This document shows positions 1 through 30,824 of a DNA stretch of 64,000 nucleotides, in pieces; the stretch's first letter is position 1, and every line of letters starts with the position of its first letter. A program made the translations under genes and the position numbers. The notes beneath the pieces were generated by a model, which worked only from the letters and a program-made list of their open reading frames with translations, was not told where the DNA came from and searched no databases. The DNA is taken from IMG/VR virus record IMGVR_UViG_3300021962_000055, positions 1-64,000 of that record; one strand, 5' to 3'. This DNA is from a virus.

Positions 1-104
1 GCTGTTCCGACAGCAAGGCTCAGGGGAAAAGAGGTGCCAACAGGTGGCACCGCATGTTCCGCACCCGTGAGAAGCGGGAGTGGAGGAAGGAGCAATGGTC
101 ATGA
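1..104 (+). CDS. partial small basic protein (3' end)
   Basis: Open frame from the window edge (...RWHRMFRTREKREWRKEQWS*); its TGA overlaps the next ATG (ATGA). Confidence 0.5.
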   Translation, partial: CSDSKAQGKRGANRWHRMFRTREKREWRKEQWS

Positions 105-262
105 GAACCAAGCGCAAGGCCCGAGCCATCGGGTCGGATCGGTGGGGCACCATCTACCGATACGGCCTTTACGAGGACATGGACATCCTCCAGCAGGAGA
201 TCCTGTTCATCGAGAAGCTCAAGGAGCGACTCGCCCGCATCCCCGTCGTGGCTAGCAACTAG
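101..262 (+). CDS. hypothetical protein
   Basis: GGAAGGAG RBS and ATGA coupling; ends in a CTAG-N3-CTAG motif. Confidence 0.6.
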   Translation: MRTKRKARAIGSDRWGTIYRYGLYEDMDILQQEILFIEKLKERLARIPVVASN

Positions 263-281
263 CAGAAAGGACACGACAATC

Positions 282-542
282 GTGTTGGAAACCAGTTGGA
301 AAGCCCAAGCCAAGTTGTGGCGTCATGCCGCGCAGTGCTTGGCACAAGAACTTGAGGAGCTTGTCAACCTCCTCAACAAGACCGTCACAAAAGACAACCC
401 GGTGCCCATGGCCCCGTCGGTTGCGCTGTACAAGTTGACGGTGAAAGGCGTCGAAGCCGCCGAATCAGGCGACGTCGAGACGATGGGCCGCACACTCCGT
501 GAGGCCCGTAAACTCGTCGGAATCCCAGGCGAGGACCTCTAG
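282..542 (+). CDS. hypothetical protein
   Basis: GAAAGGA RBS; ORF fits the + strand gene run. Confidence 0.7.
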   Translation: MLETSWKAQAKLWRHAAQCLAQELEELVNLLNKTVTKDNPVPMAPSVALYKLTVKGVEAAESGDVETMGRTLREARKLVGIPGEDL

Positions 543-548
543 TCACTA

Positions 549-581
549 GGACGGCGGTGCGCCGCAACCGTGCCGCCGTCC
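549..581 (+). promoter_or_regulatory. intergenic GC-rich hairpin with CCGCAAC loop
   Basis: GGACGGCGGTGCG-ccgcaac-CGTGCCGCCGTCC; 13-bp stem with two G-U pairs. Confidence 0.65.
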
Positions 582-589
582 ATTTGCCT

Positions 590-706
590 ATGAGAAAGCT
601 CATCCGGCATACCTGCGGGTATGCGCTCGATCTCCTGTGCCGAGCAACTGGGCACAGGTACTGCATGACGCTCGGGGCTAAGTCGTGGCACCTGCTTAAC
701 GACTAG
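590..706 (+). CDS. small Cys/His-rich hypothetical protein (38 aa)
   Basis: MRKLIRHTCGYALDLLCRATGHRYCMTLGAKSWHLLND*; fills the gap and stops in a CTAG motif; RBS weak. Confidence 0.4.
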   Translation: MRKLIRHTCGYALDLLCRATGHRYCMTLGAKSWHLLND

Positions 707-774
707 CCACTAGCGGATACAGGGGTGCGTCTGTACAACGCACAACACCAACCCCAATGAGAAAGGACCACACA

Positions 775-1497
775 GTGGAAAACACCACTTTGCCCGAGTG
801 CTGGCAGGAGGTGGCCGACGCTGTGTCGGCTGGCATCCGTCAGATCATCTTGTTCGGCCCCCCCGGGACCGGCAAGACGTTCACGGGTACGCACTTCAAC
901 CTCAACGAGGCTGGTGCGTTCCGTGTCATCTGCAACGAGGACATGACCGACGCAGACGTGACCGGTCACTTCATGAACAGCCCGCAGGGCTTCGTCTGGA
1001 ACGAGGGCGCCGTCCTTCGTGCCTGGCGTGGCAACGGTGCTGTGGGTGGTCGAGTCGTCGCTGACGAGATCGACCGCGCCAGTGGTGACGTGCTCTCCAA
1101 GCTGTTGGCAATGTTCGACAGCCCCGATAGTGCGTCGTGGACTCACCCCGTCACGGGTGAGGTCGTGCGCCCCATGCCCGGGTTCTCGGTCTTCATGACC
1201 ACCAACCTGGAAGACATGACGGAGTTGCCGACTGCGCTCACGGATCGTTTCGCCGTGCGCATCCGCATCGATCAGCCCCACCCGGACGCTCTCGCACTCC
1301 TCGACGAGGATCTGCGTACCCCGGCGTCCAAGTCGGCTGACGCGCCTGGTGACAGGCGTATCTCCCTCCGTGGTTGGATGACGTTCCAGGACGTCCGTCG
1401 TGTCCACGGTGACGAGCGTGCGGCTCGACTCGTGTTCCGCCACATGGCGGACTCGATCCTCGATGCCATCCGCGTCAACGCAGTCACTAGTCACTAG
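775..1497 (+). CDS. MoxR/CbbQ-type AAA+ ATPase (copy 1)
   Basis: Walker A GPPGTGKT, Walker B VVADEID, TTN sensor I, ALTDRF arginine finger; GTG start after GAAAGGA. Confidence 0.9.
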   Translation: MENTTLPECWQEVADAVSAGIRQIILFGPPGTGKTFTGTHFNLNEAGAFRVICNEDMTDADVTGHFMNSPQGFVWNEGAVLRAWRGNGAVGGRVVADEIDRASGDVLSKLLAMFDSPDSASWTHPVTGEVVRPMPGFSVFMTTNLEDMTELPTALTDRFAVRIRIDQPHPDALALLDEDLRTPASKSADAPGDRRISLRGWMTFQDVRRVHGDERAARLVFRHMADSILDAIRVNAVTSH

Positions 1498-1509
1498 GAG
1501 GTGACCCCA

Positions 1510-2844
1510 ATGTCCGGTGCCCGTGTACCGGCATTCCCCGACTGGCTGGATCGGGAGGACGCTGACTCACGCAAGTGGTCAGTGTCCCCCGGTCACGCCG
1601 GGCCGGGCGGTGCCAGGACTGACGTCGCTAACAAGCGTATGGCAGTCCCTCTCGATGAGTCTCCTCTCGGTCGCTCAGTGCGCATCCGTGAGATGGTCAG
1701 GGCCAAGCTGTCCCCTGCCCATCTTGCTTCTGCCCCTGAGGATTGGGAAGAGGTGCCAAGCAACTACCGTGACATGGCCGAGGCACTACGTGCCAACGTC
1801 GTCGCCAAGACTGTGTACTCCGGTTACACAGCCAAGTGCGGTCACGAGAAGTTCCTTGCCGAGCAAGCAGTCAAGTCCCTCGATGCTAACTCCATCATGG
1901 ACTTGATCGTGCGCACGGCTCACACCGACGCAGCACGGTCAGTGATGACCAACCTGCGTAAGGCTGCCAAGGACAACCCCAAGGTGCTCAGGTTCATCAA
2001 CCAGGTGAACGACGCGTGCAAGTACTACCGGTTCCACGAACGCTTTGTGGATAACGAGTACTGGACGCACAACACCGAGGGTGACTCCCTTACCGGTGGT
2101 GACTACCAGTCGTACACCCTTGCCCAGTCTTTGGCTAACATGGGTGGCACTCAGCTAGTGCCTAGCACACCTGGCGACCTCAAGGTTGACGAAGGTACCG
2201 AGCGTACCTTGTCTGACGCTGGGTTTGCCAAGCTCATCCTCGACAAGGTTCCGCTCACCGAGCGTGTCGCGGGCAGGCTTGGGCGCAAGCGCATTGCTAC
2301 CAACATCGGTGTCAACCCGAGGCGTATCAACCGCATGCTCACTGACCCTGACATGCGTATCTTTGATCGCCGTGCCCGCAACATCGGTGGGGTTATCCTC
2401 ATCGACCAGTCGGGGTCGATGCACCTCAGCACCGACGACATCTGGGAACTCATCAAGGCCAGCCCTGGCTGTACCATCATCGGTTACAGCCACCATCCTG
2501 GCACTGAAGATGTACCCAACGTGTGGGTGCTGGCCGAGCGCGGTCATGTGTGCGCCGAGGTTCGTAGCGGCAACGGCGGTAACGGTGTCGATGGGCCTGC
2601 GTTGGTGTATGCACTGTCCAAGCACAAGAAGGGCGAGCCCTTTGTATGGGTTTGTGACGGCTACGTCACCAACCAGTACGACGACTACACGCCCAGGGGT
2701 GCGGAGTTCTGCCGTGCCTTTGTGCGTAAGCATCGTATCCACATGGCGAACAACGTCAAAGAGGGTATCGAAGCCCTCAAGCAAGTGCGCGACGGCAAGA
2801 AATTGCCAACACGGCTGACCGGCAGTCTCAACGGCGGTCACTAG
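1510..2844 (+). CDS. vWA (MIDAS) domain protein, partner of the AAA ATPase
   Basis: ILIDQSGSM MIDAS motif and VWVCDG; directly downstream of the MoxR ATPase. Confidence 0.8.
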   Translation: MSGARVPAFPDWLDREDADSRKWSVSPGHAGPGGARTDVANKRMAVPLDESPLGRSVRIREMVRAKLSPAHLASAPEDWEEVPSNYRDMAEALRANVVAKTVYSGYTAKCGHEKFLAEQAVKSLDANSIMDLIVRTAHTDAARSVMTNLRKAAKDNPKVLRFINQVNDACKYYRFHERFVDNEYWTHNTEGDSLTGGDYQSYTLAQSLANMGGTQLVPSTPGDLKVDEGTERTLSDAGFAKLILDKVPLTERVAGRLGRKRIATNIGVNPRRINRMLTDPDMRIFDRRARNIGGVILIDQSGSMHLSTDDIWELIKASPGCTIIGYSHHPGTEDVPNVWVLAERGHVCAEVRSGNGGNGVDGPALVYALSKHKKGEPFVWVCDGYVTNQYDDYTPRGAEFCRAFVRKHRIHMANNVKEGIEALKQVRDGKKLPTRLTGSLNGGH

Positions 2845-2857
2845 TCGCTAGCCAACA

Positions 2858-2892
2858 GGGACGGGCGCACGCCGCAATCGTGCGCCCGTCCC
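2858..2892 (+). promoter_or_regulatory. intergenic hairpin with CCGCAAT loop
   Basis: Perfect 14-bp stem GGGACGGGCGCACG/CGTGCGCCCGTCCC; related to the hairpin at 549. Confidence 0.7.
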
Positions 2893-2915
2893 ATAACCAA
2901 CAGAAAGGAAACCCC

Positions 2916-3245
2916 ATGCTTCCTGCTATGGAGCGACCACCCAGCGGAGTCATCGTCTTCGCTGACGACGAGGGCAACTGGATCCTCTCGGCAAACAGGG
3001 TCAGCATGATCACTGTCACCGAAGAGGTCCGGCGCAGCATGAAAGCCCAAGCCATCGCCATGACAGACATGGACGAGTACGAGATTGACGAGCGTATCCC
3101 ACCCATCGGGGAGGAGATCGGTCGCATCGAATCAGCCAACCGTCAGGTCGAATCTCTCGAAGAGGCTGCCTCGATCATTCCTTTGCTCTGGGAGTGGATC
3201 ATGGGGTTCTCTGACGACCTGCCCGAAGAAATGGAGAAAGAGTGA
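2916..3245 (+). CDS. acidic hypothetical protein
   Basis: GAAAGGA RBS, ORF. Confidence 0.7.
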   Translation: MLPAMERPPSGVIVFADDEGNWILSANRVSMITVTEEVRRSMKAQAIAMTDMDEYEIDERIPPIGEEIGRIESANRQVESLEEAASIIPLLWEWIMGFSDDLPEEMEKE

Positions 3246-3793
3246 CTCCCACAGTCCAAGACCTCTGGTCTCACATAAGTAACAAGATTGCCAACAAGGT
3301 TGCCAATCCTTACGAGGATCTGTTGGCAACGATCATCCCAATCGATGAGGACGGCAAGTTCTGTGCTCACATCTCGGCACATGACAAGCCAGAGTACAAC
3401 GGCGACAGCTACGACATGATCAGGGCTCTGTGTTTCACCACGGAACTACTGCCCACCAAGTCGTTCGGGTACATGTGCCCAGCCATTGCCCGTGACCCAG
3501 AGACCGGAGAGGTCGCCAAGACGATCATCTCATTTGCTCTTGTCATCGAACACGGCAACGTGGTGTTCGGGTACTGGGATCTCGACACCAACGAGGTCGA
3601 GTACATGGATAAGGAGGAAGACCAGGGTTACAAGGGTGAGTTGCCCATCGCCCTGTCTGCCCTGTCCCTCAAGTGGGAACTCGACAGGGGTGGTCTTGGC
3701 GAGGTGGGTGACGCAATGCGTGACGCCCTCAAGGCAGCCGAGAAGGCTCGGGAAGCAATCCACAAGGTCATCAAGATGGAGGAGACCAACTAG
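3242..3793 (+). CDS. hypothetical protein
   Basis: GTGA-coupled ORF, 183 aa. Confidence 0.75.
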   Translation: MTPTVQDLWSHISNKIANKVANPYEDLLATIIPIDEDGKFCAHISAHDKPEYNGDSYDMIRALCFTTELLPTKSFGYMCPAIARDPETGEVAKTIISFALVIEHGNVVFGYWDLDTNEVEYMDKEEDQGYKGELPIALSALSLKWELDRGGLGEVGDAMRDALKAAEKAREAIHKVIKMEETN

Positions 3794-4113
3794 TGACTAG
3801 CACTTACAAAGAGAAACGCAAGCTCACTACGGCGTCTGATGCCTGGCACTTCATTCGCCAGCGTCAGCCGTTCAAGACCAGTGGCGCTTTGTGGGGTACC
3901 AAGGAAGCAGTAGGCTCGGGCCGTCTTGACGGAATCGAGCTGATCCAGTTCCGTAGGGCAATCGAGGAAGGTCACATCGATTTCATCGTCATGTCGTACC
4001 ACACCCCAATCGCCTGGTATAACAAGACACTCAAGAAGTGGCACCTGGTGAACGAGAAGTTCTCAGTTACCACCAGCAAGCACCAAACCATCACAAGAAG
4101 GGCAGTCTCATGA
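3793..4113 (+). CDS. conserved phage hypothetical protein (SYxTPIA...S.TTSKHQ type)
   Basis: Motif typical of small early actinophage proteins; start lies inside a CTAG motif. Confidence 0.7.
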   Translation: MTSTYKEKRKLTTASDAWHFIRQRQPFKTSGALWGTKEAVGSGRLDGIELIQFRRAIEEGHIDFIVMSYHTPIAWYNKTLKKWHLVNEKFSVTTSKHQTITRRAVS

Positions 4114-4415
4114 TCACAGAAGATGATGACGTAGTACTAGTGGTAGTGCCACTGTCATACGTCATGCTCCTTGAATCCATCGCCAACTTCGATCCCGATT
4201 GGGCGAGTAGCGAGGATTGGGAGCACATCGACGATGTACGAAGTATCCTCATCGAGGACACCGAGGTGCTAGCCACCGTAGGAATGCTCAACGAATCATG
4301 GGATCCTGACATGGACGACAACCAACCCAGGGATTTCACGATGCTCCCCAACCCGAGGCCCGAGATCTCTCGGTACTCGCTCAACCAGTTAGGAGAAGAT
4401 CCTGATGACGAGTGA
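4110..4415 (+). CDS. acidic hypothetical protein
   Basis: ATGA-coupled ORF. Confidence 0.6.
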   Translation: MITEDDDVVLVVVPLSYVMLLESIANFDPDWASSEDWEHIDDVRSILIEDTEVLATVGMLNESWDPDMDDNQPRDFTMLPNPRPEISRYSLNQLGEDPDDE

Positions 4416-4587
4416 GCTAGCCACTAGCGAGGACGAGGTAGTCAATGAGGCTTTGCGCATCATCGACAACGCCCTGTCCTCATACGGCAAGAACAGCATT
4501 GTCCCAGGCGAGGCTTTCAAGGATTGCCTGCTAGACCTGCGCATCCTTATCGCCTCCAAGCCCAAGGAGGAACCCGTTGCTGAGTAA
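4405..4587 (+). CDS. hypothetical protein
   Basis: AGGAG RBS, ORF. Confidence 0.6.
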   Translation: MTSELATSEDEVVNEALRIIDNALSSYGKNSIVPGEAFKDCLLDLRILIASKPKEEPVAE

Positions 4588-4987
4588 GGCAACAGTTGTT
4601 ATCGGCTTGGCCGTGCTGTCAGCGTGCAGCACTGCCGAGTCGAATGACACGACAACTCTGGTGGCACTTGAGACGAGCACCGTCGCAACTGTGCCGCCGT
4701 CCAATACAACGTACTACTCGCCCGCAAAGATCGCCTTTGTTGACGATGTGTACTACTACTACGGGGCATCCGTGCCCCTTGGTGCCGATGACCTACTTGA
4801 GTTTGGTGACACCTGGTGCTATGCACTAGAGACGGGCATGGGTGGGTCAGATGTATCAGAGCGCATAAGAGAGGGCGCTATTGATAACAACGACGCGAAC
4901 CTCCACTACGCGATCGTTAGGGCGGCAGTGTTCAACCTGTGCCCCGAGCAGCAATACAAGTGGATTGACGTTGCTAACAGCAGATAA
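4577..4987 (+). CDS. lipoprotein, DUF732-like
   Basis: Signal peptide with lipobox LSAC, Thr-rich linker, G..WC and AAVFNLCP Cys pair. Confidence 0.65.
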   Translation: MLSKATVVIGLAVLSACSTAESNDTTTLVALETSTVATVPPSNTTYYSPAKIAFVDDVYYYYGASVPLGADDLLEFGDTWCYALETGMGGSDVSERIREGAIDNNDANLHYAIVRAAVFNLCPEQQYKWIDVANSR

Positions 4988-4996
4988 GGAGAGGTA

Positions 4997-5485
4997 ATGG
5001 ACATGCGTTACGAGATAGCCCAGGCTATGCGCAAAATCCCCGACCACGCACCTGACATCAAGGACTTCTTCCCAGACGGGATCCGCTTTGACAATGGTGA
5101 GTGGGAAATTGACGATGTTGTCAAGCTGTACGAGTACAAGCACGAGCACTTCTGGCATAACATCGCCCAGTCTGCCATGCGTGATGAGTTGATTCCGTGT
5201 GCTACGTACATCAACCAAATCCGACGTGAGATCGGGCTTGATAAGGACGAGGATGAAGAGTTCTTTGAGCGCCTTATGTTCGCTGGCTCACTTGTCAGTG
5301 AAGACCGTAGGTACCGAGCACTATCGGACGACGAGCGTGAGGAGATCGACCTTATCCGTAAGGACCTCAACGAACAGTTTGCCGACCCCGAATCGGAGTT
5401 CAACAATGTCTTGGCTCAGGCAATGGATGCGGTGAACTCCAAGATGGATGACATCGAGTCTCTCAACAAATTACTGGAGGAATGA
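4997..5485 (+). CDS. acidic hypothetical protein
   Basis: AAGGAGAGG RBS, ORF. Confidence 0.75.
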   Translation: MDMRYEIAQAMRKIPDHAPDIKDFFPDGIRFDNGEWEIDDVVKLYEYKHEHFWHNIAQSAMRDELIPCATYINQIRREIGLDKDEDEEFFERLMFAGSLVSEDRRYRALSDDEREEIDLIRKDLNEQFADPESEFNNVLAQAMDAVNSKMDDIESLNKLLEE

Positions 5486-5486
5486 C

Positions 5487-6002
5487 ATGACAAGGAACAT
5501 CTGCCTAGTGTCTAGCAAGGGTGGTCAAGGTATCACCACTACCACCTTGTTGCTGGCCCGGAGTTTCGAGGAGCAGGGCCTCACTGTTGCTGTCGTCGAT
5601 AAGGATGACGGTGACCTGAGGGCTGCGATGGGCGTCCCATACACTGATGACGCCACTTACCGAGTAACCGATAAGGTTACGTGGCACCGTCACGGAACAG
5701 TTGTCGAGGCTGACGTTGCTATCTACGACAACTGTGTACCCCACACCAACAAGTACGAAACGTACGTGGTTGTGCGTAACTGCTACCTGTCCATCAGGCG
5801 CAACATGGACACACCTGGTGATGGCGTAATCGTTGTGTTGGATAAGGCACGAGCCCTTACCGATTCTGACGTACAGTCAGTGCTTCGTAAGCCTGTGTCT
5901 GTGGTGGTGCCCATCGACAACGCCATCGTCAAGAAGGTGGATGCCGGTCTGTTCGACAGGCTCCCCACCAAGTTCACCATTGACCCACTAGTAACTAGCT
6001 AA
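5487..6002 (+). CDS. MinD/ParA-fold protein of the actinobacterial Ssd/CpaE-like type
   Basis: Deviant Walker A SKGGQGITT, AVVD, CYLSIRR, C-terminal VDAGL..RLP. Confidence 0.65.
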   Translation: MTRNICLVSSKGGQGITTTTLLLARSFEEQGLTVAVVDKDDGDLRAAMGVPYTDDATYRVTDKVTWHRHGTVVEADVAIYDNCVPHTNKYETYVVVRNCYLSIRRNMDTPGDGVIVVLDKARALTDSDVQSVLRKPVSVVVPIDNAIVKKVDAGLFDRLPTKFTIDPLVTS

Positions 6003-6012
6003 GGAGAACCAC

Positions 6013-6366
6013 ATGAAGAAGTACAAGTTCAAGTTCCCCGCCACGATCAGCATGACAAGTGAGGACCTCTTCGATCATTTGATCGGGTCAGGCGCCAGTT
6101 GTTATCCGTGGTGGCGAACTGTTGACCTGAACGATGAAGGATTCCTCCTGCTTGAAGCAGACAGCGAGACCGACATCGACGGAGTAGAGCCCCCCATCAG
6201 CAAAACGTTGACCATCGACGAGGTTGTTGCTGGGATCCAGGCTATGCTTGACGACCCCAAGTGCCCCGAGTCGGTCACGTGGGCGTTTCAAAACGACGAC
6301 ATTGACTCGGACGCAGCGGACGTAATTCTTCAGACGCTGTTGTTCGGTCAGACAATCTTCGCATAG
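6013..6366 (+). CDS. hypothetical protein
   Basis: AAGGAG RBS; DAADVILQ..LFG motif seen in phage proteins. Confidence 0.75.
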   Translation: MKKYKFKFPATISMTSEDLFDHLIGSGASCYPWWRTVDLNDEGFLLLEADSETDIDGVEPPISKTLTIDEVVAGIQAMLDDPKCPESVTWAFQNDDIDSDAADVILQTLLFGQTIFA

Positions 6367-6368
6367 AG

Positions 6369-6473
6369 TCGGTGGCGTGCTGGCACACGCCAACGAATGG
6401 TCTTGTTCGCAAGACCACAACGAGCCGCAATCGTGGCGGCGTCCCAAAACCCGGGGTTCTCATGGCCCTGGTT
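6369..6473 (+). other. multi-hairpin intergenic element (possible structured leader RNA)
   Basis: Four consecutive stem-loops including TGGTCTTG-TTCG-CAAGACCA and GCCGC-AATCGTG-GCGGC. Confidence 0.5.
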
Positions 6474-6493
6474 ACCAACCAAGGAGGGTTACT

Positions 6494-7327
6494 TTGAGAG
6501 TAACACTTGAAACCATCACACCGCAGGATGCCGAACGGCTACTGCAGTACAACGCGGGTAATCGCTTCATCCGCAAGAAGCGTGTTGCCCTCTATGCCAA
6601 GCAGATGGCCAATGGCCAGTGGCGGGCAACCGGTGAAGCACTCAAGTTCAGTAGTACTGGCCGTCTTCTCGATGGTCAGCACAGACTTCACGCTGTGGTT
6701 TTGGCAGGCGTGCCTACCCAGTTCTTGGTCATCCGTGACCTCGATGATGAAGTTTTCAAAGTACTGGACAGCGGGCTTGCCCGTGGTGCTTCGGACGTTG
6801 TCCGTTCGCTCGGAGTTGGCAGTCCCAGTGATGCCAGTGCAATCACTCGCATGTACCTAGTGGCTAGCAGTGGGTTGAACCCGGCTAACACGAACGTCAT
6901 GACGCTTGTGACGAAGACAGACATCGCTTCCTACGTCGAGACCCACAAGGATCTTCTGACGGAGACAACCAGCGTATCGCGCAATACCCGCAATGCTGTG
7001 GGTGGGTCCACTACGTCTTGGGGTGCTGCGAGGCTCATGGCTTCCGACACTGTTGGTGTTGCGGAGTTCGACAAGTTTGTTGCCGGAGTTGTCTCTGGCG
7101 CTGGCCTTTCGGCTGGCGACCCGAGGTTGGCTTTGCGCAACTGGCTTAGCCGTAACTTCAAGCCGAGTACTTCTGGTGTTACCGCTGCGGTGCACCTCGG
7201 TACGTACATGAAGGCATTCGTTGCCTACCTCAACGGGGATCAGATCCACCTGCTCAGGACGTGGGATCCCAAAAAGCCCATGCCCATTCCGGTGGCCACC
7301 CCGTCATCGGTCATCTTCACTAGCTGA
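6494..7327 (+). CDS. ParB/Srx-like DGQHR domain protein
   Basis: N..NR motif and LLDGQHRL; TTG start after AAGGAGG. Confidence 0.8.
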   Translation: MRVTLETITPQDAERLLQYNAGNRFIRKKRVALYAKQMANGQWRATGEALKFSSTGRLLDGQHRLHAVVLAGVPTQFLVIRDLDDEVFKVLDSGLARGASDVVRSLGVGSPSDASAITRMYLVASSGLNPANTNVMTLVTKTDIASYVETHKDLLTETTSVSRNTRNAVGGSTTSWGAARLMASDTVGVAEFDKFVAGVVSGAGLSAGDPRLALRNWLSRNFKPSTSGVTAAVHLGTYMKAFVAYLNGDQIHLLRTWDPKKPMPIPVATPSSVIFTS

Positions 7328-7338
7328 CCATTCACCAC

Positions 7339-7371
7339 GGTGGTGCCCTAGCGGCTAGCTGGGGCACCACC
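7339..7371 (+). promoter_or_regulatory. intergenic hairpin containing a CTAG-N3-CTAG copy
   Basis: GGTGGTGCCCTAGC-ggcta-GCTGGGGCACCACC. Confidence 0.6.
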
Positions 7372-7390
7372 ACAATCAAGGAGAACCACC

Positions 7391-7819
7391 ATGACCACAA
7401 CCATTGAACACAAGTTCCAAGCCTTTGAAAAGGCATACGAAGAGGCATGCGACTGGGATTCAGTCCATTCTCTGTGGTCCATCAGTGCTGAGACGAACGG
7501 TCCCGCGTTGGCCGTACACGTCAGTGACTTTGATGAGCCTTATGAAATGGTCGACGCGTTTGTTGACCTCGGAATCGAGGGTCGAGCGATGGTCGTCATG
7601 TACGGGTGGGCGGCACCTTACAAGCCAGGCGAAGACGACACACGCCCGTCTCAACACGAAGCCCGTATCAGGGTCAGGTTGTACATCTTCCTTGACCACG
7701 GTACGGTGTACACCGCTATGCGTATGCGGGGAGGAGAGTTGGACACCGACATGAGTGATGCTGGTGGTCCTCTCGACGAAGCAATCAAGGAAGCAATCAA
7801 CAGGAAGAAGAACAAGTGA
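7391..7819 (+). CDS. hypothetical protein (RPSxHxxR type)
   Basis: AAGGAG RBS; GWAAP...RPSQHEARIRVR. Confidence 0.75.
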   Translation: MTTTIEHKFQAFEKAYEEACDWDSVHSLWSISAETNGPALAVHVSDFDEPYEMVDAFVDLGIEGRAMVVMYGWAAPYKPGEDDTRPSQHEARIRVRLYIFLDHGTVYTAMRMRGGELDTDMSDAGGPLDEAIKEAINRKKNK

Positions 7820-8052
7820 GTACCAAGATCAACGTCCATGCCAACAACGACAAGGACCGAGTGTCCTTGGAGACGAACACCTATGACCACACCAACGGTT
7901 CTGCGATTAGGTTTCACACGATTGAACTGTCGTACGCTGGAATCAACATCGTACTGTTCGTGAATGACGATGAGGCACTCATCGACTCCCTCAACAAGGT
8001 CATCGACGGCGCTCAGGCCAAGCTCGATGCCATGTTGTCCGTGGGTGTCTAG
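7816..8052 (+). CDS. hypothetical protein
   Basis: GTGA-coupled ORF. Confidence 0.65.
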   Translation: MSTKINVHANNDKDRVSLETNTYDHTNGSAIRFHTIELSYAGINIVLFVNDDEALIDSLNKVIDGAQAKLDAMLSVGV

Positions 8053-8369
8053 TGGCTAGCAACTTCAGTGACGGGGCCTGTTACATAGTGATAGGCCCCG
8101 TCACATGGGAAGACACGGGGACCACCGAGCACCATACGATCATTGTCGATCCTTCTTTGGAATACGACATTGACGAGGATGGTGAAGCCTTGTACGTAGC
8201 TGAGTCTGCTGGCGAAGTGTTCGACCTAGTAGCCAACATGCACGACAGCCCTAATTTTGGATGGGTTCTCAACGACATTACCTGTGTCAAGTACATGGGA
8301 AAGGTCTACGAGGGCGCTGCTGCCTGGAACAAGTTGGAGTCAATCCATTTGGAGGAGATCAATGCCTAA
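8052..8369 (+). CDS. acidic hypothetical protein
   Basis: Coupled ORF starting inside a CTAG motif. Confidence 0.6.
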   Translation: MASNFSDGACYIVIGPVTWEDTGTTEHHTIIVDPSLEYDIDEDGEALYVAESAGEVFDLVANMHDSPNFGWVLNDITCVKYMGKVYEGAAAWNKLESIHLEEINA

Positions 8370-9060
8370 CTGGTGTTCTAACTACACAACGGTGTACGGC
8401 CCTAAAGATAAGCTTCAAAAGTTTATCGATAAGGTAACACCTGCTTACCCGAAGCTTCATGGAGAGATCTCTTTGAAGCGGTTGATGCCAATGCCTATGG
8501 TGCTTCGCAAGCCACCTAAGCATCTGGCTCACAAGTTCTCAAAGTTTCCCATCAGCCAGGAAGAGAAGGAAATAGCTGACGCCAAAGCTGCGGATTACAC
8601 GGCTCTCTGCATTGAGAAGACTGGGTACTCCGACTGGTACCCATGGGCTGACGTCAACTGGGGTACCAAGTGGGGTGACTGCGAAACCCGTGTACTCACC
8701 CCGCTATCACCTCTCAAAGAAGCGGTCGATCTATGGACTGGTGCTAAGGACATCCATTACATCGAGTTTGCCTACGACACGGCGTGGGGACCGTTCTGCA
8801 CGACGTTTTGGGAAAAGGTGTCAAAGAAATACAAGGGACTTGTGTTTGTTACAAAGTTTCACGAACCTGGCATGGACTTCCTGGGCATCTACGTCACTCG
8901 CGATGGTGTTACCAAAGTCTCTATCGAAGAGCGCATCAGTGAAGTTTCTACCGCACCAGATGACGGTGAGTGGAACGAAGAGTTCTGGGCACAGATGTAC
9001 GACTTCTTAAACAAGCAAGAAGAAATCGGAGTAATGAGAGTTGGCTTATGCCTAAAGTAA
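8362..9060 (+). CDS. YubB/DUF1281-like ferredoxin-fold protein
   Basis: MPNWCSN start, NWGTKW, YDTAWGP, HEPGMDFLG motifs. Confidence 0.75.
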   Translation: MPNWCSNYTTVYGPKDKLQKFIDKVTPAYPKLHGEISLKRLMPMPMVLRKPPKHLAHKFSKFPISQEEKEIADAKAADYTALCIEKTGYSDWYPWADVNWGTKWGDCETRVLTPLSPLKEAVDLWTGAKDIHYIEFAYDTAWGPFCTTFWEKVSKKYKGLVFVTKFHEPGMDFLGIYVTRDGVTKVSIEERISEVSTAPDDGEWNEEFWAQMYDFLNKQEEIGVMRVGLCLK

Positions 9061-9293
9061 CCTTGTCGAGTAAGAGGTACATCTACTACACGTATGTTCG
9101 TGAGATCATCGTGTTGGCTGTTGCCTCCCGTACATTGATGTACGGAAATCACAACGTGTTTCAAGCACTGGCTTTGCTAGTCACTATCCACAGCATGGCC
9201 AAGCTGGTGCTAACAACTGTGTACGCACAGTGGCGTGCAGATAACAACTGGGACACAGAAGTTGATGTGCCTGACGACATCCTGAGGCGGTGA
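9048..9293 (+). CDS. small membrane protein
   Basis: Two hydrophobic segments. Confidence 0.5.
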   Translation: MPKVTLSSKRYIYYTYVREIIVLAVASRTLMYGNHNVFQALALLVTIHSMAKLVLTTVYAQWRADNNWDTEVDVPDDILRR

Positions 9294-9297
9294 CTAC

Positions 9298-10734
9298 ATG
9301 AGTACCCCAATACCTACGACCACGCTTCTTCCACACCAGGAGGAGGCTGTGGGCTTTGTCCTCGCCAACCAGCATGCTTATCTTGCCCTTGATATGGGCT
9401 TAGGTAAGACTGCTGTGGCCATCAGTGTCATCTCTCGTGTAGCTGAGCGTGGCCTTGCGCCAGCATTGGTGGTGGTGCCTCCATCCCTACGCACAACGTG
9501 GGTCAAGGAGGTAGCCAAGTTTGCGCCCCACCTGACTACCCATGTCATCAAGGGTATGCAGACTAACCCTCTGCCACTTGCTGACGTGTACATCATTGGT
9601 GACTCAGTCATCAGTGAGTGGGTAGACCCCAAGGATCCCAACTCACTGCTAGGTAAGTTCAGGGTGATCGTGGTAGACGAAGCGCATCGAGAGAAGAACT
9701 TCAGCGCCAGACGTACCAAGGCGGTCATGCGATTGGCCAACACAGTCAATGGCATACGGCTGCTCATGTCAGGTACCCCAGTACCTAACGGACGCAACCA
9801 GGAGATCGGTACTCAGATCGACATCCTTGGTGACAAGGCATGGAAGGCAATCGGCGGTAAGAGTAAGTTCTGGAACTACTACTGCCCTGTAGAGCGTGAC
9901 GCCAACGGCAAGCTAAACAAGTACGGTAAGCGTGCCAACATCGACTCGCTCGGGCTCCATGAGGCGCTGACGTCTTCGTTCATGCACCGTCGCAAACGTG
10001 GTGATGTCCTAAATCTGCCCAACAAGGGTCGCGCACCTTTGTACACCGAGGGTATGGGTAAGGCTGTCGACGACTATCTACTAGCCGAGCGTGACCTTAT
10101 CTCTTACCTGGCTGGTGAGGGTAAGAACTGGCGTGCGGCTGTACGTAACGAGGCGCTGGTAAAGATCACCACCATGCGCAAGCTCGCTGGTGAGTGCAAG
10201 GTCAAAGCCGTTATCGAACATGCCAAAGAGTTCCTTAACGACACAAAGCATAACGACGTACCCCCTGGCCTGTTCATCGTGGCTGAGCATCACAGTGTGA
10301 TGCAGCCGTTGTTTGAGGGGTTAGAGAGTTACGGTGCTGTCATGTACAACGGTTACATGAAAGACTTCGAGAAAGACGAATCGGTAGAGCTGTTCACCAA
10401 CGGTGATGCTCGGGTGCTCATCGGGCAGATCAAATCAGTTGGTGTAGGGCTTACCCTGCACGGTGGAGGGAGGAACCACAATGTAATCATCGCACAACTA
10501 CCTTGGTCGCCTGCGGATCTAACCCAGGCAGAGGACAGGTTGCACCGCATCGGGCAAATATCAGACGTTGATGTCGAGATATGCCTGGCCAGTATTGATG
10601 GCACCTGGACTATCGACGAACGCCTGTGGGCGCTTCTTGAACAGAAAGCGTTTTCATCAGGAGAGATCGTCGATGGTAAGGGAGAGTTCTTACTAGACGA
10701 ACTCCAGGACAGCCTCATCGACACCTACCGCTAG
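9298..10734 (+). CDS. SNF2-family (SF2) helicase/ATPase
   Basis: DMGLGKT, VVDEAH, MSGTP, GVGLTL, QAEDRLHRIGQ. Confidence 0.92.
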   Translation: MSTPIPTTTLLPHQEEAVGFVLANQHAYLALDMGLGKTAVAISVISRVAERGLAPALVVVPPSLRTTWVKEVAKFAPHLTTHVIKGMQTNPLPLADVYIIGDSVISEWVDPKDPNSLLGKFRVIVVDEAHREKNFSARRTKAVMRLANTVNGIRLLMSGTPVPNGRNQEIGTQIDILGDKAWKAIGGKSKFWNYYCPVERDANGKLNKYGKRANIDSLGLHEALTSSFMHRRKRGDVLNLPNKGRAPLYTEGMGKAVDDYLLAERDLISYLAGEGKNWRAAVRNEALVKITTMRKLAGECKVKAVIEHAKEFLNDTKHNDVPPGLFIVAEHHSVMQPLFEGLESYGAVMYNGYMKDFEKDESVELFTNGDARVLIGQIKSVGVGLTLHGGGRNHNVIIAQLPWSPADLTQAEDRLHRIGQISDVDVEICLASIDGTWTIDERLWALLEQKAFSSGEIVDGKGEFLLDELQDSLIDTYR

Positions 10735-10749
10735 TAGCTAGGAGAAACC

Positions 10750-10938
10750 ATGCCAATCATCAAGTCATCCTCCAAGGGTGAGCAACTCACCACGGTGATC
10801 TTCACGGAGCAGGAGATCAAGTCATTGATCCACCTGCTTGCCAGCGGGTCATTCAATGCCGACGACGAAACGTACGACGCAGTCGAGTCTTTGCAAGACA
10901 TGTTGTACGCATTCGCCATCGACGTTAATTACGTGTGA
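10750..10938 (+). CDS. hypothetical protein
   Basis: AGGAG RBS. Confidence 0.6.
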   Translation: MPIIKSSSKGEQLTTVIFTEQEIKSLIHLLASGSFNADDETYDAVESLQDMLYAFAIDVNYV

Positions 10939-10958
10939 CTTCGGTCACACGTAATTAA
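10925..10958. promoter_or_regulatory. perfect 15-bp inverted repeat with C(UUCG)G tetraloop
   Basis: TTAATTACGTGTGAC-TTCG-GTCACACGTAATTAA upstream of the second AAA gene. Confidence 0.65.
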
Positions 10959-11023
10959 TTGCAACGACCTACCTTATGCAGATAAGGTGGGGTACACCAC
11001 CAACAACAACAAGGAGAACCACA

Positions 11024-12229
11024 ATGGTTGCAGCCAAGGCCCTGCACAAGGGCATGTCTGTCATCGTCAACTCGGGACCTTTCAAGGGGCTGACGGCTAC
11101 GGTCATCAACCCCGAGGTGTTTCCCGACGGACACCCTGACCAGCGCAAGGTTGTTGTCGATATCAATGGCGTTGGGGAAGTCAACATCATCCCCAAGCAG
11201 TTGAACATCGGCACCGGCCTTACCCCCACGGTCAGCACGACGACCACCCACGACGAGCCTTACCTCAAGGCGCCCAAGGTGGTTTCGGCCACCACCCCCA
11301 TCACCTCCCTCGACGACCCGGCACTTGACCGTTGGCGTCCGTCCCGTCCCAACCTGCTCAAGGAGTACGTCAGCCGTACCCTTCCTGACGGCAAGATTGA
11401 CACCGACGTCATGCTCACTATGTGGCGTGACGCACGTGTCAACGGGTATGCCCCCAACGTTGGGCTTGTCGGTGACACCAGCACCGGTAAGACCATGCTC
11501 GTAGAAGTCATGGCCCATCTCGTCGCTAAGGAGATGGGGTTGTCCAAGCCCCTCCCCATCTTCCTGCTCGCGGGTGACAGCGCTATCACTGACCACGACA
11601 TGTTCGGCCAGTACCGTCCTGACGAGAACGGCGACCTGGTGTGGATGGAAGGCATCGTTGCGCTAGCCGCTAGGCTCGGCGGTATCTTGTACCTTGACGA
11701 AATCAATGCCATGCCTGGCAACGTTACGTCAGCCCTCCACCCTCTGTGTGACGACCGACGTCAGTTCGTCAACATCCGTCGCCCAGTCGATGACGGCCAC
11801 GGTGGCAAGATGGCCGAGGTTGTGTACGCCAGTCGTGACCTGTGGATCATCTCCACTTACAACCCCGGTTATGCAGGTATGTCTCGTACCAACGAGGCTT
11901 TCGCTGCCAGGTTTGAATGGTTGCCGTGGGATTACAACGACGACGTTGAGCGTAAGCTCATCAAGTCGCCTGCTATCCGACTGCTTGGCCAGGCACTGCG
12001 CAGTGCACGTGACACCCGTGCCATCTCCACTCCGGTGGGTACCTCTGCACTTCAGAGGCTCGAGCGCAACGTCGCACTCTTCGGAGTTGACTTCGCACTC
12101 TTCGCCTTTGCTGGGCGCTTTACCTCCAAGTCCGAGAAGGCTGTGGTTGACACCATCATCGAGGATCGTAGTATCCGAGTGATGCTCAACACCGAGGTGT
12201 CCTCACCCAAAGAACCAGACACCAACTGA
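11024..12229 (+). CDS. MoxR/CbbQ-type AAA+ ATPase (copy 2) with N-terminal KOW/SH3-like domain
   Basis: GDTSTGKT, LYLDEIN, TYNPGY, AFAARF; N-terminal VIVNSGPFKG KOW-like motif. Confidence 0.9.
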   Translation: MVAAKALHKGMSVIVNSGPFKGLTATVINPEVFPDGHPDQRKVVVDINGVGEVNIIPKQLNIGTGLTPTVSTTTTHDEPYLKAPKVVSATTPITSLDDPALDRWRPSRPNLLKEYVSRTLPDGKIDTDVMLTMWRDARVNGYAPNVGLVGDTSTGKTMLVEVMAHLVAKEMGLSKPLPIFLLAGDSAITDHDMFGQYRPDENGDLVWMEGIVALAARLGGILYLDEINAMPGNVTSALHPLCDDRRQFVNIRRPVDDGHGGKMAEVVYASRDLWIISTYNPGYAGMSRTNEAFAARFEWLPWDYNDDVERKLIKSPAIRLLGQALRSARDTRAISTPVGTSALQRLERNVALFGVDFALFAFAGRFTSKSEKAVVDTIIEDRSIRVMLNTEVSSPKEPDTN

Positions 12230-12241
12230 TAAGGAGTAACC

Positions 12242-14302
12242 ATGTCAATGTTTGAAGAGGTTATACCTCATAACGACGAAGACATAGATGATGACTCGCT
12301 GTCCCCCCAGCTAGCGGGTAGGCAAGTGATGACTCGTAAGGAGCTCATCAACTCTCGGGCCCGTATGCGTAATGCGGTTAACCGTGATGCCAAAGAAGCT
12401 GAAGAGCGTGCTCGCAACACTGCCTCGATGCTTCTTTCGTACAACGAGCGTGAGGACTGGTACCGCCAACGTAATGAACGGCGTAACAAATATGAGAGTG
12501 TTGCTTACGGCGTAACGAACATGGCCAACAAGGTGTTACAGAGCCTTGATATCAATGTTCCTCTGCGTGTCGATGCTGACCCACACACCCGCAGCTACGG
12601 CATCACCGACTACGAGTCAATCGACATAACGCTTCACATTCCGGAAAGCGATATCGATACCGTCAGCAACACAGAAGTGTTGTCCGACCTGGTGTTTAAA
12701 GCCAAGGGTATGGTGTACCACGAAGGTGGCCATATCATGTGGACCTACCCCTTTGACAACCTTGTCACGGAGGTTACGGGCATGATCGGTACGGACGGTT
12801 GTGCCTCCATCATCAAGTCGGTAATCGGTGAGTACGTAGCTAAGCATGCACCATCATTGCTTAGTGATTACACCGATATGGTGTCTAAGTACTCCATAAG
12901 CCATTTCATCACCCGCATGATGTTCCCAGCTTGGGGCGTACTTGAAGACCAACGCATGGAGACTGCCATGTGTTATACCTCACCAATCATGTCTCGGTAC
13001 TTCACCGAGATTGTGTTGGCATGCGTCATTGATCCGCAACACCCAGGTACTGCCTGGCCATGGGTTGCTGGGCGCACCTACTTGCCGAGCAACATCCGTC
13101 AACTTCTCAGAGAATTGGCTGAGACTAACGGGTTCAGCCAAGTCATCGACGACATAAACGAGCAAGTGTTCAAGTACCGTAAGTCAAACGATGTACTTGA
13201 GATGTTCGAATGTGTAGTTCGTATGTCTGAACTCATGTACATTTGGTATCAGGGGTGCCCTAGTGAAACCAAGCAGCCCCGCAACGAGCACGGTAGTAAG
13301 TCTGGTAGTGGTGGTGCTAAACAGTTGCCTGTTGTACCTAACCCATATGAACACGATATGGAGCAGCCCAACAAGGTCAAGGGTAGCCAATCCCCCAGCG
13401 AAGGCCAGGGAGAGGAACAGGACAAGGGCGAGGGTGACCCCCAATCCAGTGGTCCATCAACTTCCGGTGACCTAGCCAGTCAGTACGGCAAGCTTGCTGA
13501 CAACGAGCGTGCCAAGCAGGCCAACGCTACACGCAAAGACGAGGTTGACTCAGTGGCGTCTGATATCAACAAGCATCGCAATGCTGATATCAAACCGTAT
13601 GCTAACCCATACGCAATGTCATCCGATGAGGTAGAGAAGACCAAGGTTGTGGCTAACGGTATGATCTCGGTGCTTGAGTCGCTTCACTCACAGGTTGACC
13701 CCAGCTGGAGGTTCTACCAAGAGCATGGTGTGCTTGACCCCGTAGCGTTCAGCATGGCTGAGCCCGGTGATGACCGTTACTGGTCAGGCCTCGACGATAT
13801 CGGTGCTAATGGGCATAACCTTGCGGTGTCGATCTTGTTGGACGTATCGGGTTCCATGGGTGGCCATGCTGAGGAACTGTCTATATCAGCTATGGGTATT
13901 CGCAAGGCTTGTGAGTACTTCTCCATCCCGTGTACTATCACTACGTTCAGCGACTTAGCTAGGATGTTTGTTGAGGGAGACACCGAAGAGGCGGACTTCA
14001 TATCCATCTCCGTGGGCGGTGGCACTAACGTGTATGGTGCCATCAGTAAAATGCCTGACCAAACATACGGCAAGCAGAACCACTTAGTGCTCATCTTGAC
14101 TGACGGCGAATGGTCTGATGTCGAGGACATCCGACCGTGGGTTGACAACAACAAGTACATCATCTTGGTTGGCTTTAGGATGTACGACCAAGCAATCAAC
14201 AAGATGCGCAAGAAGGGTGCCAACGAGGTGATCAACATCAACGAACTCAGTAAGCTTCCTCAGCTTATGACTAGTGCGCTAGCTGGGTTCATGGCCAAAT
14301 GA
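12242..14302 (+). CDS. HExxH metallopeptidase-like + vWA domain protein (CobT-like partner)
   Basis: YHEGGH, LEDQRME, low-complexity linker, LLDVSGSM, GGT, ILTDG. Confidence 0.85.
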   Translation: MSMFEEVIPHNDEDIDDDSLSPQLAGRQVMTRKELINSRARMRNAVNRDAKEAEERARNTASMLLSYNEREDWYRQRNERRNKYESVAYGVTNMANKVLQSLDINVPLRVDADPHTRSYGITDYESIDITLHIPESDIDTVSNTEVLSDLVFKAKGMVYHEGGHIMWTYPFDNLVTEVTGMIGTDGCASIIKSVIGEYVAKHAPSLLSDYTDMVSKYSISHFITRMMFPAWGVLEDQRMETAMCYTSPIMSRYFTEIVLACVIDPQHPGTAWPWVAGRTYLPSNIRQLLRELAETNGFSQVIDDINEQVFKYRKSNDVLEMFECVVRMSELMYIWYQGCPSETKQPRNEHGSKSGSGGAKQLPVVPNPYEHDMEQPNKVKGSQSPSEGQGEEQDKGEGDPQSSGPSTSGDLASQYGKLADNERAKQANATRKDEVDSVASDINKHRNADIKPYANPYAMSSDEVEKTKVVANGMISVLESLHSQVDPSWRFYQEHGVLDPVAFSMAEPGDDRYWSGLDDIGANGHNLAVSILLDVSGSMGGHAEELSISAMGIRKACEYFSIPCTITTFSDLARMFVEGDTEEADFISISVGGGTNVYGAISKMPDQTYGKQNHLVLILTDGEWSDVEDIRPWVDNNKYIILVGFRMYDQAINKMRKKGANEVININELSKLPQLMTSALAGFMAK

Positions 14303-16646: not shown

Positions 16647-17041
16647 GCTAGCACTAGCTCTCTGATACGAGCCTTACCCCAACCATCCGTCTCAGTCCAT
16701 ATGGCGGTGTTAACCCCGTGCTCAGCTAGTAGCTCCTGGCATGCCTCGCACGGCTTGGCCAATCCGATAAGACCGCTCCTTGTTATCCTGGCAATGTAGA
16801 TTGTAGACCCTTGGGCGTCTCCTGCCTTACGCAGTGCTACTTGCTCAGCGTGGTACGAAACACCACCAGGTTCGACTTGTGCTGGGTCATTACGGTACCG
16901 ATTGAAACCGGTGCTAAGGACACGCCCACCACCAACAAGCACGGCCCCCACACGCCACTTATCGTGGGGGGCCATCAGTGCTTGTTGTGCAGCGACGTTT
17001 ATCCAGCGAAGATCAGACGTACTGATTTTGGGCATCAGCAA
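16643..17041 (-). CDS. cytidine/dCMP deaminase-fold protein
   Basis: VGAVLV, GFN, HAE and PCxxC zinc motifs. Confidence 0.85.
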   Translation of the reverse strand: MLMPKISTSDLRWINVAAQQALMAPHDKWRVGAVLVGGGRVLSTGFNRYRNDPAQVEPGGVSYHAEQVALRKAGDAQGSTIYIARITRSGLIGLAKPCEACQELLAEHGVNTAIWTETDGWGKARIRELVLA

Positions 17042-17474
17042 TCAGTTCCTCAGACTTTTCGATAGAGATACCGAGGTGGGTTGCTAGATCACTGACGATG
17101 CCTCTGGATGGAATCTTTTTAAAAGCGTTGAACTGCTTAAGGCATTTGATAACCACAGTTACCGGCATGCGACAATCAAGATTGTTGGTGTCCATGTTTC
17201 TGCGCTCCCTTGGAGCCAGGCCGCCGTATACACCGTGGTGTAGCCCATTCTCTATAGCAAAAGTCAAACACTCTTTGCGCACCGTGCATTTAGAGCAAAT
17301 CAATTTTGATTCGTTAACACAGGCTTGCATTAAGTGGGCTTCTTCTTTGGAAGGGAAAAAACATGAGGCCCCATGGCCCTTGCACGCAGCTTTCTGTCTC
17401 CACTTGTCGTCTCCCCATGAACGAAGTTGGGGAAGGTCTACCGACTTTTCAATGAGTTGTTCAGATGTGTTCAT
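17013..17474 (-). CDS. whiB: WhiB-family transcription factor with C-terminal HTH-like extension
   Basis: W...AAC, C..C.V...C, GVYGG. Confidence 0.88.
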   Translation of the reverse strand: MNTSEQLIEKSVDLPQLRSWGDDKWRQKAACKGHGASCFFPSKEEAHLMQACVNESKLICSKCTVRKECLTFAIENGLHHGVYGGLAPRERRNMDTNNLDCRMPVTVVIKCLKQFNAFKKIPSRGIVSDLATHLGISIEKSEELIADAQNQYV

Positions 17475-18549: not shown

Positions 18550-18703
18550 CCTTTACCTCCGATACGAACGTCATGACATTGGTCTTTCTACCACCTACCC
18601 CACAACGGTGAAGTGGGGGTTGTGTCATTGGGACAAACACCTCCACCTCACCGTTGCATTTGGGGCACCGATAGTGCCCCGGCGGGTAAGTTTCTTTGGT
18701 CAC
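18497..18703 (-). CDS. small zinc-ribbon protein
   Basis: YRCPKC...HRC; coupled to the upstream gene. Confidence 0.5.
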   Translation of the reverse strand: MTKETYPPGHYRCPKCNGEVEVFVPMTQPPLHRCGVGGRKTNVMTFVSEVKGATRNSVRGLASPEQGS

Positions 18704-30823: not shown

Positions 30824-30824
30824 G

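Follow-up and report, generated by a model that had tools for sequence, protein, structure and literature searches.

A palindromic CTAG word repeated along the early arm of a metagenomic myovirus, and spelled differently in its relatives: possible sites for a symmetric DNA-binding protein

The DNA considered here, hereafter the window, is a stretch of 64,000 nucleotides (nt), positions 1-64000 of the 92,847-bp viral record IMGVR_UViG_3300021962_000055 (G000 in the comparisons), in which a palindromic word, CTAG-N3-CTAG, had been noticed in many dispersed copies from the letters alone. We find that this word is under strong purifying selection as DNA, that it is confined to one arm of the genome and placed at gene boundaries, and that in related phages both its halves change together. 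The reading that we favor, tentatively and with slightly less than even confidence, is that these dyads are duplex-DNA sites for a symmetric, probably phage-encoded binder, which would control or insulate a variable early arm.

The window contains 16 exact copies of CTAG-N3-CTAG, against a mean of 0.54 +/- 0.81 and a maximum of 3 in its dinucleotide-preserving shuffles. The 15 copies listed by the sequence-only reading and the outlier that it gave at 22798 are all present, in a number far above that of shuffled sequence. In the whole 92.8-kb record the word occurs 27 times and the reversed control word twice, 11 of these copies lying past the window (record 89004-92590). The record is graded complete by CheckV, and its terminal 197 nt repeat the initial 197 nt with 3 mismatches, so that it is either circular or terminally redundant. 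Its ends overlapping in this way, 26 of the 27 copies make one contiguous arc of about 15.3 kb, from 89004 across the record junction to 11673, which is 16.5% of the genome; from these counts, the binomial probability of such a clustering is estimated at about 1e-19. The uneven distribution described from the window therefore extends to the complete genome; on the other hand the cluster does not start at 252, as had been proposed, since the array continues across the repeated ends of the record.

The consensus of the 27 copies is gCTAG-Y-S-R-CTAGc, a 13-bp dyad with a Y-S-R centre, and CTAGTCACTAG is its most frequent form. The constraint on the spacer, also noticed earlier, is strong: its first base is C or T in 27/27 copies and its last base A or G in 25/27, the exceptions being the intragenic copies at 2155 and 5505. 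The tetranucleotide CTAG itself shows no depletion here, being found 263 times where trinucleotides predict about 221, so that the scarcity evoked as usual in bacterial genomes does not apply to this phage. The one-mismatch copies reported at 9177, 10074 and 12311 do exist, and others are found at 4262 and 4819, but this degenerate class shows no clear enrichment in the arm (6/18). The spacing of the copies is no more even than random placement would give (coefficient of variation 0.83, P=0.25), and their density drops with distance from the end of the arc that carries a cluster of DnaA boxes.

The strictness of the word appears best by comparison with the closest relative, the fragment G004, whose arm helicase is 95% identical in amino acids (aa) to that of G000 and which carries 13 copies of CTAG-N3-CTAG. 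Over 11.3 kb of aligned arm the two genomes are 86% identical, while the core positions of their shared dyads are identical without exception (84/84). All 10 aligned dyads are kept; the spacers differ in 3 of them, always within Y-N-R. We estimate at about 1e-6 the chance of such a core conservation at 14% divergence. Sites nevertheless turn over: G004 has no dyad in the first codons of a ParA-like gene where G000 has one, but has a dyad just upstream of that gene. A further indication comes from the intragenic copy at 11663, which is written as GCG CTA GCC GCT AGG for the peptide ALAAR (ALAxR in the relatives G003 and G005), whereas four orthologues of this stretch use other codons and have no dyad. 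Such a synonymous recoding in a conserved peptide implies a selection on the DNA word. Exact cores, recoding, and cores kept throughout against an 86% identical background all go in the direction of the earlier claim that selection acts on the DNA.

About 40 viral contigs were retrieved with the arm helicase and an AAA+ protein, and they show that relatives carry other dyads in the same arm, at partly orthologous junctions, which is what the sequence-only reading had proposed to look for. G001 (95.6 kb, complete; 69% aa identity for the helicase) has no CTAG dyads; instead 16 copies of cCTAATCATTAGg lie at 27627-35620, after five DnaA boxes and the first gene. The same CTAA/TTAG word (CTAAT-S-ATTAG) is found in G007, which has 21 copies, and in four other contigs (68-71% aa identity for the AAA+ protein). 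G002 and G003 (55% aa identity for the helicase) have respectively 10 and 8 copies of tGTAAC-S-GTTACa in the same arm, and G005 (99 kb, complete; 64% aa identity for the AAA+ protein) has 15 copies of tgTCTCA-N3-TGAGAca in 12 kb. When aligned on their centre, the four classes, CTAG, CTAA, GTAA and CTCA, all have the same 4-3-4 build with T at position -4, and each genome has one class only. The class-specific word occupies orthologous junctions with conserved flanks: before and after the gene of a 246-aa AAA+ protein, after the vWA partner of this gene, and after a 183-aa gene. Half-sites change in concert: in all copies of a genome, a G-to-A change in one half is accompanied by C to T in the other. 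This concerted change requires a reader with two-fold symmetry, which is the simplest explanation of the series; the dimeric reader first suggested from the window is thereby strengthened.

Could the dyads rather be crossover joints for cassette exchange in a hyperplastic arm, used by a nuclease, a recombinase or a microhomology-driven recombination? The arm is indeed the most variable part of the genome, the gene order differs among G000, G001 and G007, a RecA homologue is encoded, and 4 of the 8 homology breakpoints between G000 and G004 fall at most 20 bp from a dyad. Elsewhere, cluster O mycobacteriophages display repeat-flanked indels (PMC4351075), and the PeSL elements of T4-type phages mediate shuffling (PMC2839356). 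However, breakpoints coincide with gene ends too, which confounds the comparison, and dyads are also found at junctions that are intact in all relatives (AAA_5/vWA) and inside conserved genes. Moreover 11 bp is too short for a RecA-type homology, and shuffling by itself needs no palindromic symmetry; no tyrosine integrase appeared in the genome scan, serine recombinases not having been searched for. We thus regard crossover joints as an unlikely primary role. If the dyads are binding sites, as we favor, recombination between copies would reshuffle gene cassettes as a side effect.

The position of the copies relative to genes is also informative. About 23 of the 26 copies of the arc are non-coding or lie at most about 60 nt from a gene boundary (by manual curation, calls of open reading frames (ORFs) judged spurious being set aside), and 3 are mid-gene. 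That many copies sit on stop/start junctions had been seen before; in at least 8 of them the preceding gene ends on a TAG that belongs to the dyad. Most often the dyad follows a stop codon and precedes the next ribosome-binding site, and in several cases GGAGGTGAC and a start codon come directly after it. Many dyads precede the start codon by 3-30 nt only, which places them inside a polycistronic unit and not at promoters. Sigma-70-like promoters number 3 in the 17 kb of the arm, against 9.5 in shuffles, and none is at a dyad.

A location between stop codon and Shine-Dalgarno sequence, ahead of GC-rich hairpins, would also suit a dyad acting in the early polycistronic RNA, as a hairpin or a tag between cistrons read by a protein for processing, stability or translation. 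In favor of this, copies flank a tRNA, a tRNA-like piece and a non-coding stretch of about 570 nt; the central spacer base is biased towards C on the sense strand in G000 (10:2), in G001 (12:4) and also in G003; and the G005 dyad would form a 7-bp stem (mean -7.1 kcal/mol). On the other hand stems of 4-5 bp are barely stable: the mean minimum free energy of 19-nt RNA windows is -3.6 kcal/mol in G000 and -0.8 kcal/mol in G007, where most copies are unfolded. This marginal self-folding suggests that the sequence is kept rather than the stability. Within a genome the stem is invariant, with no covariation from copy to copy, and the bases beside the centre keep their Y/R symmetry though they are unpairable in a 3-nt loop. 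Besides, G007 shows no strand bias (7:9), and three copies, interspersed with the DnaA boxes, precede the first gene. Taken together, these observations make an RNA element quite improbable.

Hairpins are nevertheless present in the neighborhood of the array. They are GC-rich, have a conserved GCAAYCG loop, directly follow some dyads (550-592 and 2852-2900 in the window, 33395-33440 in G001, 78523-78560 in G005) and recur at orthologous junctions in relatives. As no U-tract follows them, they are probably RNA-stabilizing or processing hairpins rather than intrinsic terminators.

The other end of the arc lies at a change of strand. The minus strand carries nearly all genes from 16.6 to 88.9 kb, and the plus strand those from 89.3 kb through the record junction to 16.6 kb. 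It is at this point of divergence, in non-coding DNA, that the arc begins, with seven exact co-oriented TTATCCACA DnaA boxes (record 88893-89246), and 3 dyads are interleaved among the boxes; an inverted eighth box is found at 90032-90040, 6 bp from the dyad at 90047. DnaA-box clusters also precede the arrays of G001 (26860-26954) and of G005 (76975-77137), where the array starts about 0.5 kb after six boxes. At the opposite, three complete genomes of a more distant clade, G010-G012 (about 50% identity, 42% GC), have neither array nor DnaA-box cluster, so that both features are present or absent together.

This linkage could evoke an origin-proximal domain marker, in the manner of parS/ParB, KorB/OB or matS/MatP, onto which a binder would load, or which it would bridge, to organize, segregate or condense the DNA or to time its replication. 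In three complete genomes the arrays start at the DnaA-box cluster, or at most about 0.7 kb after it, and then thin with distance, and they co-occur with this cluster; a small ParA-like ATPase is encoded in the arm of G000 and G004; and the 5-3-5 layout with its Y-N-R centre resembles matS. But the genome has no ParB_N domain, and the ParA-like gene and its neighbor, which encodes an acidic 117-aa protein, are missing from G001 and G007, which do bear arrays. The strict placement at gene junctions is, in addition, unexpected for a purely architectural site. An origin-proximal domain marker seems rather remote, about as much as the RNA element discussed above.

We come back to a protein binding the duplex. 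The reader of the dyads would be a dimeric protein with two-fold symmetry and sequence specificity, which most likely is encoded by the phage, evolves fast and lies outside current family models. The sites would mark a variable and co-oriented early or accessory arm starting at the DnaA-box cluster; once occupied, they might ensure an arm-wide control of transcription, by repression or by insulation, through a roadblock at each junction, of the type put forward for stoperators and for the conserved inverted repeats of phiC31. Such a roadblock or insulation would fit the placement of the copies, which within the polycistronic arm come after a stop codon, before a ribosome-binding site and ahead of hairpins; we hold this junction-by-junction function loosely.

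Several observations weigh against this interpretation. The centres of the half-sites are 7 bp apart, which is unusual for classical helix-turn-helix (HTH) dimers, and the central C bias is unexplained by a perfectly symmetric reader. Above all, the binder itself was not found among the candidates examined. With BLAST and phmmer, no protein family is common to all five arms, except an AAA+ ATPase. The recognizable DNA-binding proteins (HTH_17, MerR-like, a winged HTH protein of 422 aa, an extended WhiB and a C2H2-like protein) do not track the dyad class. The product of the first arm gene is predicted all-helical (pLDDT 74), with no PDB fold match at E<=0.001.

Of the candidates put forward by the sequence-only reading, none of those checked holds. 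For the "DGQHR" protein (6377-7327), Pfam and NCBIfam gave no match and the sole hit was phrog_5931, a family of unknown function; its homologues are found only in G001, G004 and G014. The HTH_17 (excisionase/MerR-like) protein of 68 aa, encoded on the minus strand at 18700-18906, has a recognition helix that is invariant in every dyad class and in the array-free clade. Likewise the recognition helix of the MerR-like 144-aa protein (37222) is at least nearly invariant across the dyad classes and, as in a further candidate, the 422-aa winged HTH protein, it changes little or not at all between G000 and the array-free clade. A WhiB-domain protein (17013-17474, minus strand) has at its C-terminus a rapidly evolving extension, about 60 aa long and resembling a small HTH; as a binder it was discarded because this extension differs between G001 and G007, which have the same dyad. 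Two other proteins of the arm fare no better: the first arm gene (213 aa) has few homologues and differs between phages with the same dyad, and the 117-aa neighbor of ParA, considered as a centromere binder, is acidic, has no family match, and is absent together with ParA from G001 and G007. A single classical C2H2-type zinc-finger pattern (C-x2-C ... H-x4-H) occurs in a 120-aa protein (42778-43140, minus strand), conserved in G001 and G005 but undetected in the array-free clade. Profiling gene content for families present in array-bearing and absent from array-free genomes gave no plausible DNA binder, and no family stood out when an excess of identity between G001 and G007 was taken as the mark of a shared specificity.

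Two weak leads may be retained. The first is the wing of the HTH_17 protein, whose residues vary with the dyad class (QPVLT, KPIRT, KPIKQ, QPIGK or KPITT); this variation follows the class but equally the phylogeny, and the protein stays a weak candidate. The second, also a weak candidate, is a 53-aa protein (101-262, plus strand) with a basic N-terminus and one amphipathic helix, whose orthologues are in the arms of G001, G004 and G007 only.

That a host protein, regulator or component of a restriction-modification system, reads the sites, which would then differ because hosts differ, is very improbable: the adjoining DnaA boxes are host-protein sites by definition and no phage binder was found among the candidates examined, but phages at roughly equal distances from one another (about 65-70% aa identity) may have the same dyad class or not, the arrays keep to one arm, and to our knowledge no known actinobacterial operator matches the dyad.

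A more ambitious version of the favored reading can be formulated, which we judge unlikely as a whole. The arrays would belong to a new site-plus-binder system, in which a rapidly evolving protein of unrecognized fold, or a host factor, defines an origin-proximal phage "domain" and couples the DnaA-box region to the accessory early arm, for instance by timing or gating transcription, replication or DNA entry. The stepwise drift of specificity (CTAG, CTAA, GTAA, CTCA) might then serve as an incompatibility or immunity code between competing relatives.

Following the copies along the window illustrates their relation to genes. At 252-262 CTAGCAACTAG provides, with its second TAG, the stop codon of the gene for the 53-aa basic protein; at 539-549 the first TAG of CTAGTCACTAG ends the gene 282-542, and a GC-rich hairpin with a GCAACCG loop lies downstream (about 550-592). 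CTAGCCACTAG at 703-713 is intergenic, 43 nt ahead of the longest AAA_5 ORF (757-1497). The stop of this AAA_5 gene is in CTAGTCACTAG again (1487-1497), directly followed by GGAGGTGAC and the vWA-partner gene; the orthologous junction has CTAATCATTAG in G001 and CTAATGATTAG in G007. The next gene, 1501-2844, contains CTAGTGCCTAG at 2155-2165, mid-gene and in the sole TAG-free frame, and stops in CTAGTCGCTAG (2841-2851), after which comes a hairpin with a GCAATCG loop. This layout of dyad plus hairpin recurs in G001 (33384), and in G007 (23406) the dyad is followed by a similar GC-rich stretch. CTAGTGACTAG at 3790-3800 is at the stop of the gene 3242-3793, and a second CTAGCCACTAG (4417-4427) stands 12 nt inside a 60-aa gene (4405-4587).

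The ParA-like gene (5448-6002) has two dyads, CTAGTGTCTAG at 5505-5515 in its first codons, and CTAGTAACTAG at 5988-5998 in its 3' end, 14 nt ahead of the gene 6013-6366. Its product is a short ParA/MinD-like ATPase, matched by family models in the N-terminal Walker A region only; in its motif KGGQGIT an Ile takes the place of the conserved Lys, and the gene is present only in G000 and G004. Further on, CTAGTGGCTAG occurs twice, mid-gene in 6377-7327 (6857-6867) and at the stop of the gene 7816-8052 (8049-8059), and between them CTAGCGGCTAG (7348-7358) is intergenic, 32 nt ahead of the gene 7391-7819. The SNF2 helicase gene (9298-10734) stops in CTAGTAGCTAG (10731-10741), 8 nt ahead of the gene 10750-10938, and the last copy of the arc, CTAGCCGCTAG at 11663-11673, is inside an AAA_5 gene (10976-12229). 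The stray dyad (22798-22808) falls about 45 nt into a minus-strand gene (22380-22853); about one copy per genome is expected by chance. This gene, which holds the sole dyad outside the arm, neighbors a gene (20950-22395) whose product is TGT/DpdA-like (phrog_887, queuine tRNA-ribosyltransferase) and 71-83% identical across relatives; this suggests a 7-deazaguanine modification of the phage DNA.

Apart from the SNF2 helicase gene, a tRNA-Arg, the tRNA-like piece and the non-coding stretch of about 570 nt, the arm contains many small ORFs without known families. It also has two pairs of a MoxR-type AAA_5 ATPase with a vWA-like partner, at 757-2844 and 10976-14302, the second of which is kept in every relative, array-free clade included. 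The non-coding stretch (record about 90060-90630) has no convincing ORF and a dyad on either side; no Rfam family matches it at E<=1, and the non-coding stretches of the arm match Rfam only as tRNA. The tRNA-like piece (record 91767-91867) ends in CCA and weakly matches the tRNA-Sec model (23.6 bits); the last base of the dyad that comes after it is the first base of tRNA-Arg(CCU) (record 91883-91956). Another tRNA, tRNA-Ile(UAU), is on the minus strand at 85300-85374 of the record.

The phage itself is a myovirus known from metagenomes, which encodes tail sheath and baseplate proteins and its own replication genes (PolA, a DnaB-like helicase, a primase and the RecA homologue). Its WhiB proteins, at least two in number, suggest that the host is an actinobacterium. 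Among cultured phages there is no close relative: a Megablast comparison gave no hit, and the best matches of the helicase, about 32% identical, are in Arthrobacter phages. A six-frame scan of the genome gave no match to Phage_integrase (PF00589), ParB_N or HTH_3 (Cro/CI-type); with neither integrase nor Cro/CI-type HTH, nothing indicates a repressor circuit for lysogeny. An N4-type giant virion RNA polymerase, which uses hairpin promoters, was ruled out since the largest ORFs are not over 982 aa.

Other dyads were met in the course of the comparisons. GGTATCACA, which belongs to an ATAC-N4-GTAT dyad, occurs 21 times in a distant 115-kb relative, G006 (IMGVR_UViG_3300014969_000016, 40001-100000), and the array-free G010-G012 have, far from the arm, an operator-like cluster in which three GGGTC-N6-GACCC dyads stand in tandem over less than 80 bp. 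CTAG-N3-CTAG itself occurs in 2-3 copies in each of the unrelated viral contigs L087, L090, L092, L104, L108 and L109 (62-64% GC), including the exact 15-mer CTAGTCACTAGGAGG, although they have no detectable protein in common with the phage described here. The search for further viral contigs with CTAGTCACTAGGAGG gave only unrelated ones, with 1-3 copies.

How does this array compare with known systems? The matS site is GTGAC-RNY-GTCAC, and the likeness lies in the 13-bp palindrome, the 3-bp centre and the regional confinement; Pfam scans of the arm proteins gave no ribbon-helix-helix or MatP family, no search aimed at these two having been made. ParABS and KorB-OB were set aside because there is no ParB_N match and ParA is not conserved with the sites, G001 and G007 having arrays without ParA. 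An integron attC array was discarded too: there is no PF00589 match, and the sites have 11-17 bp where attC are imperfect palindromes of 55-140 bp.

The stoperators of cluster A mycobacteriophages, to which the repressor (gp71 in L5) binds, and the conserved inverted repeats recognized by the phiC31 repressor come closer: both consist of tens of short sites in intra-operon gaps, their spelling is lineage-specific and co-evolves with the repressor, and they silence by blocking elongation. Stoperators are asymmetric sites of 13-14 bp, oriented and found in both arms of temperate phages with a known repressor. They are discussed in PMC5712189. By contrast the sites described here are palindromic and occupy a single arm, and no lysogeny genes were found. 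A stoperator or immunity-repressor system was thus rejected: only the central base of the palindrome is strand-biased (and not in G007), and integrase, ParB_N and HTH_3 are lacking.

The PeSL cassettes of T4-type phages are repeated elements between small non-essential early genes, made of a sigma-70 promoter and a terminator stem-loop, and recombination between them reshuffles genes (Arbiol et al. 2010, PMC2839356). The likeness is that of repeated short elements between the genes of a hyperplastic region; it goes no further, as the dyads have no promoter and are not stable hairpins.

Two published arrays are of the same descriptive class, that of dispersed inverted repeats, to which the present one belongs with its 27 copies and with 16-21 class-specific copies in relatives. 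Microbacterium phages of cluster EG have an 18-bp inverted repeat, GATCAACC-NN-GGTTGATC, whose 8-10 copies are grouped at one end of the genome, where they occupy short intergenic regions and precede start codons by 14-22 bp (Jacobs-Sera et al. 2020, PMC7302621). There also the repeats are kept though the flanking genes differ, neither repressor nor integrase is present, and the function is unknown; on the other hand copies are fewer, the arms are longer, the spacer has 2 bp, and neither a specificity series nor a link to an origin is reported. Cluster O mycobacteriophages have 34 copies of a 17-bp TGTTCGG-N3-CCGAACA, mostly in one non-structural operon, whose function and binder are unknown (Cresawn et al. 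2015, PMC4351075). Several features are common to both: inverted arms that do not vary around a 3-bp spacer that does, about 30 copies in a genome, located in short intergenic regions of a non-structural operon with some intragenic, positions kept among relatives, indels between copies, and a dimeric binder proposed and not found. G005 even has the same 7-3-7 build. The core described here is however shorter (4-3-4, 11-13 bp), and its copies stay within a single arm, at the start of which is a DnaA-box cluster; our phage is a myovirus from metagenomes and cluster O phages are siphoviruses; and relatives spell the word differently at the same junctions, whereas cluster O phages share one word.

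The array can therefore not be called undescribed as a kind, contrary to what was first thought: the kind is already known from clusters O and EG, though unexplained. The novelty lies in a series of specificities shifting step by step at shared junctions, in the compact form of 11-13 bp, in the synonymous recoding and in the coupling to DnaA boxes. A natural specificity series is offered by one 4-3-4 dyad spelled in at least four ways at these junctions, together with an array-free sister clade, and the question of the binder and of its function becomes testable by covariation across genomes and by swaps between CTAG- and CTAA-class words. If the binder is indeed an arm-wide silencer or insulator, it would offer a compact orthogonal set of operator-repressor pairs, and would explain how lytic actinophages control their hypervariable host-takeover genes.

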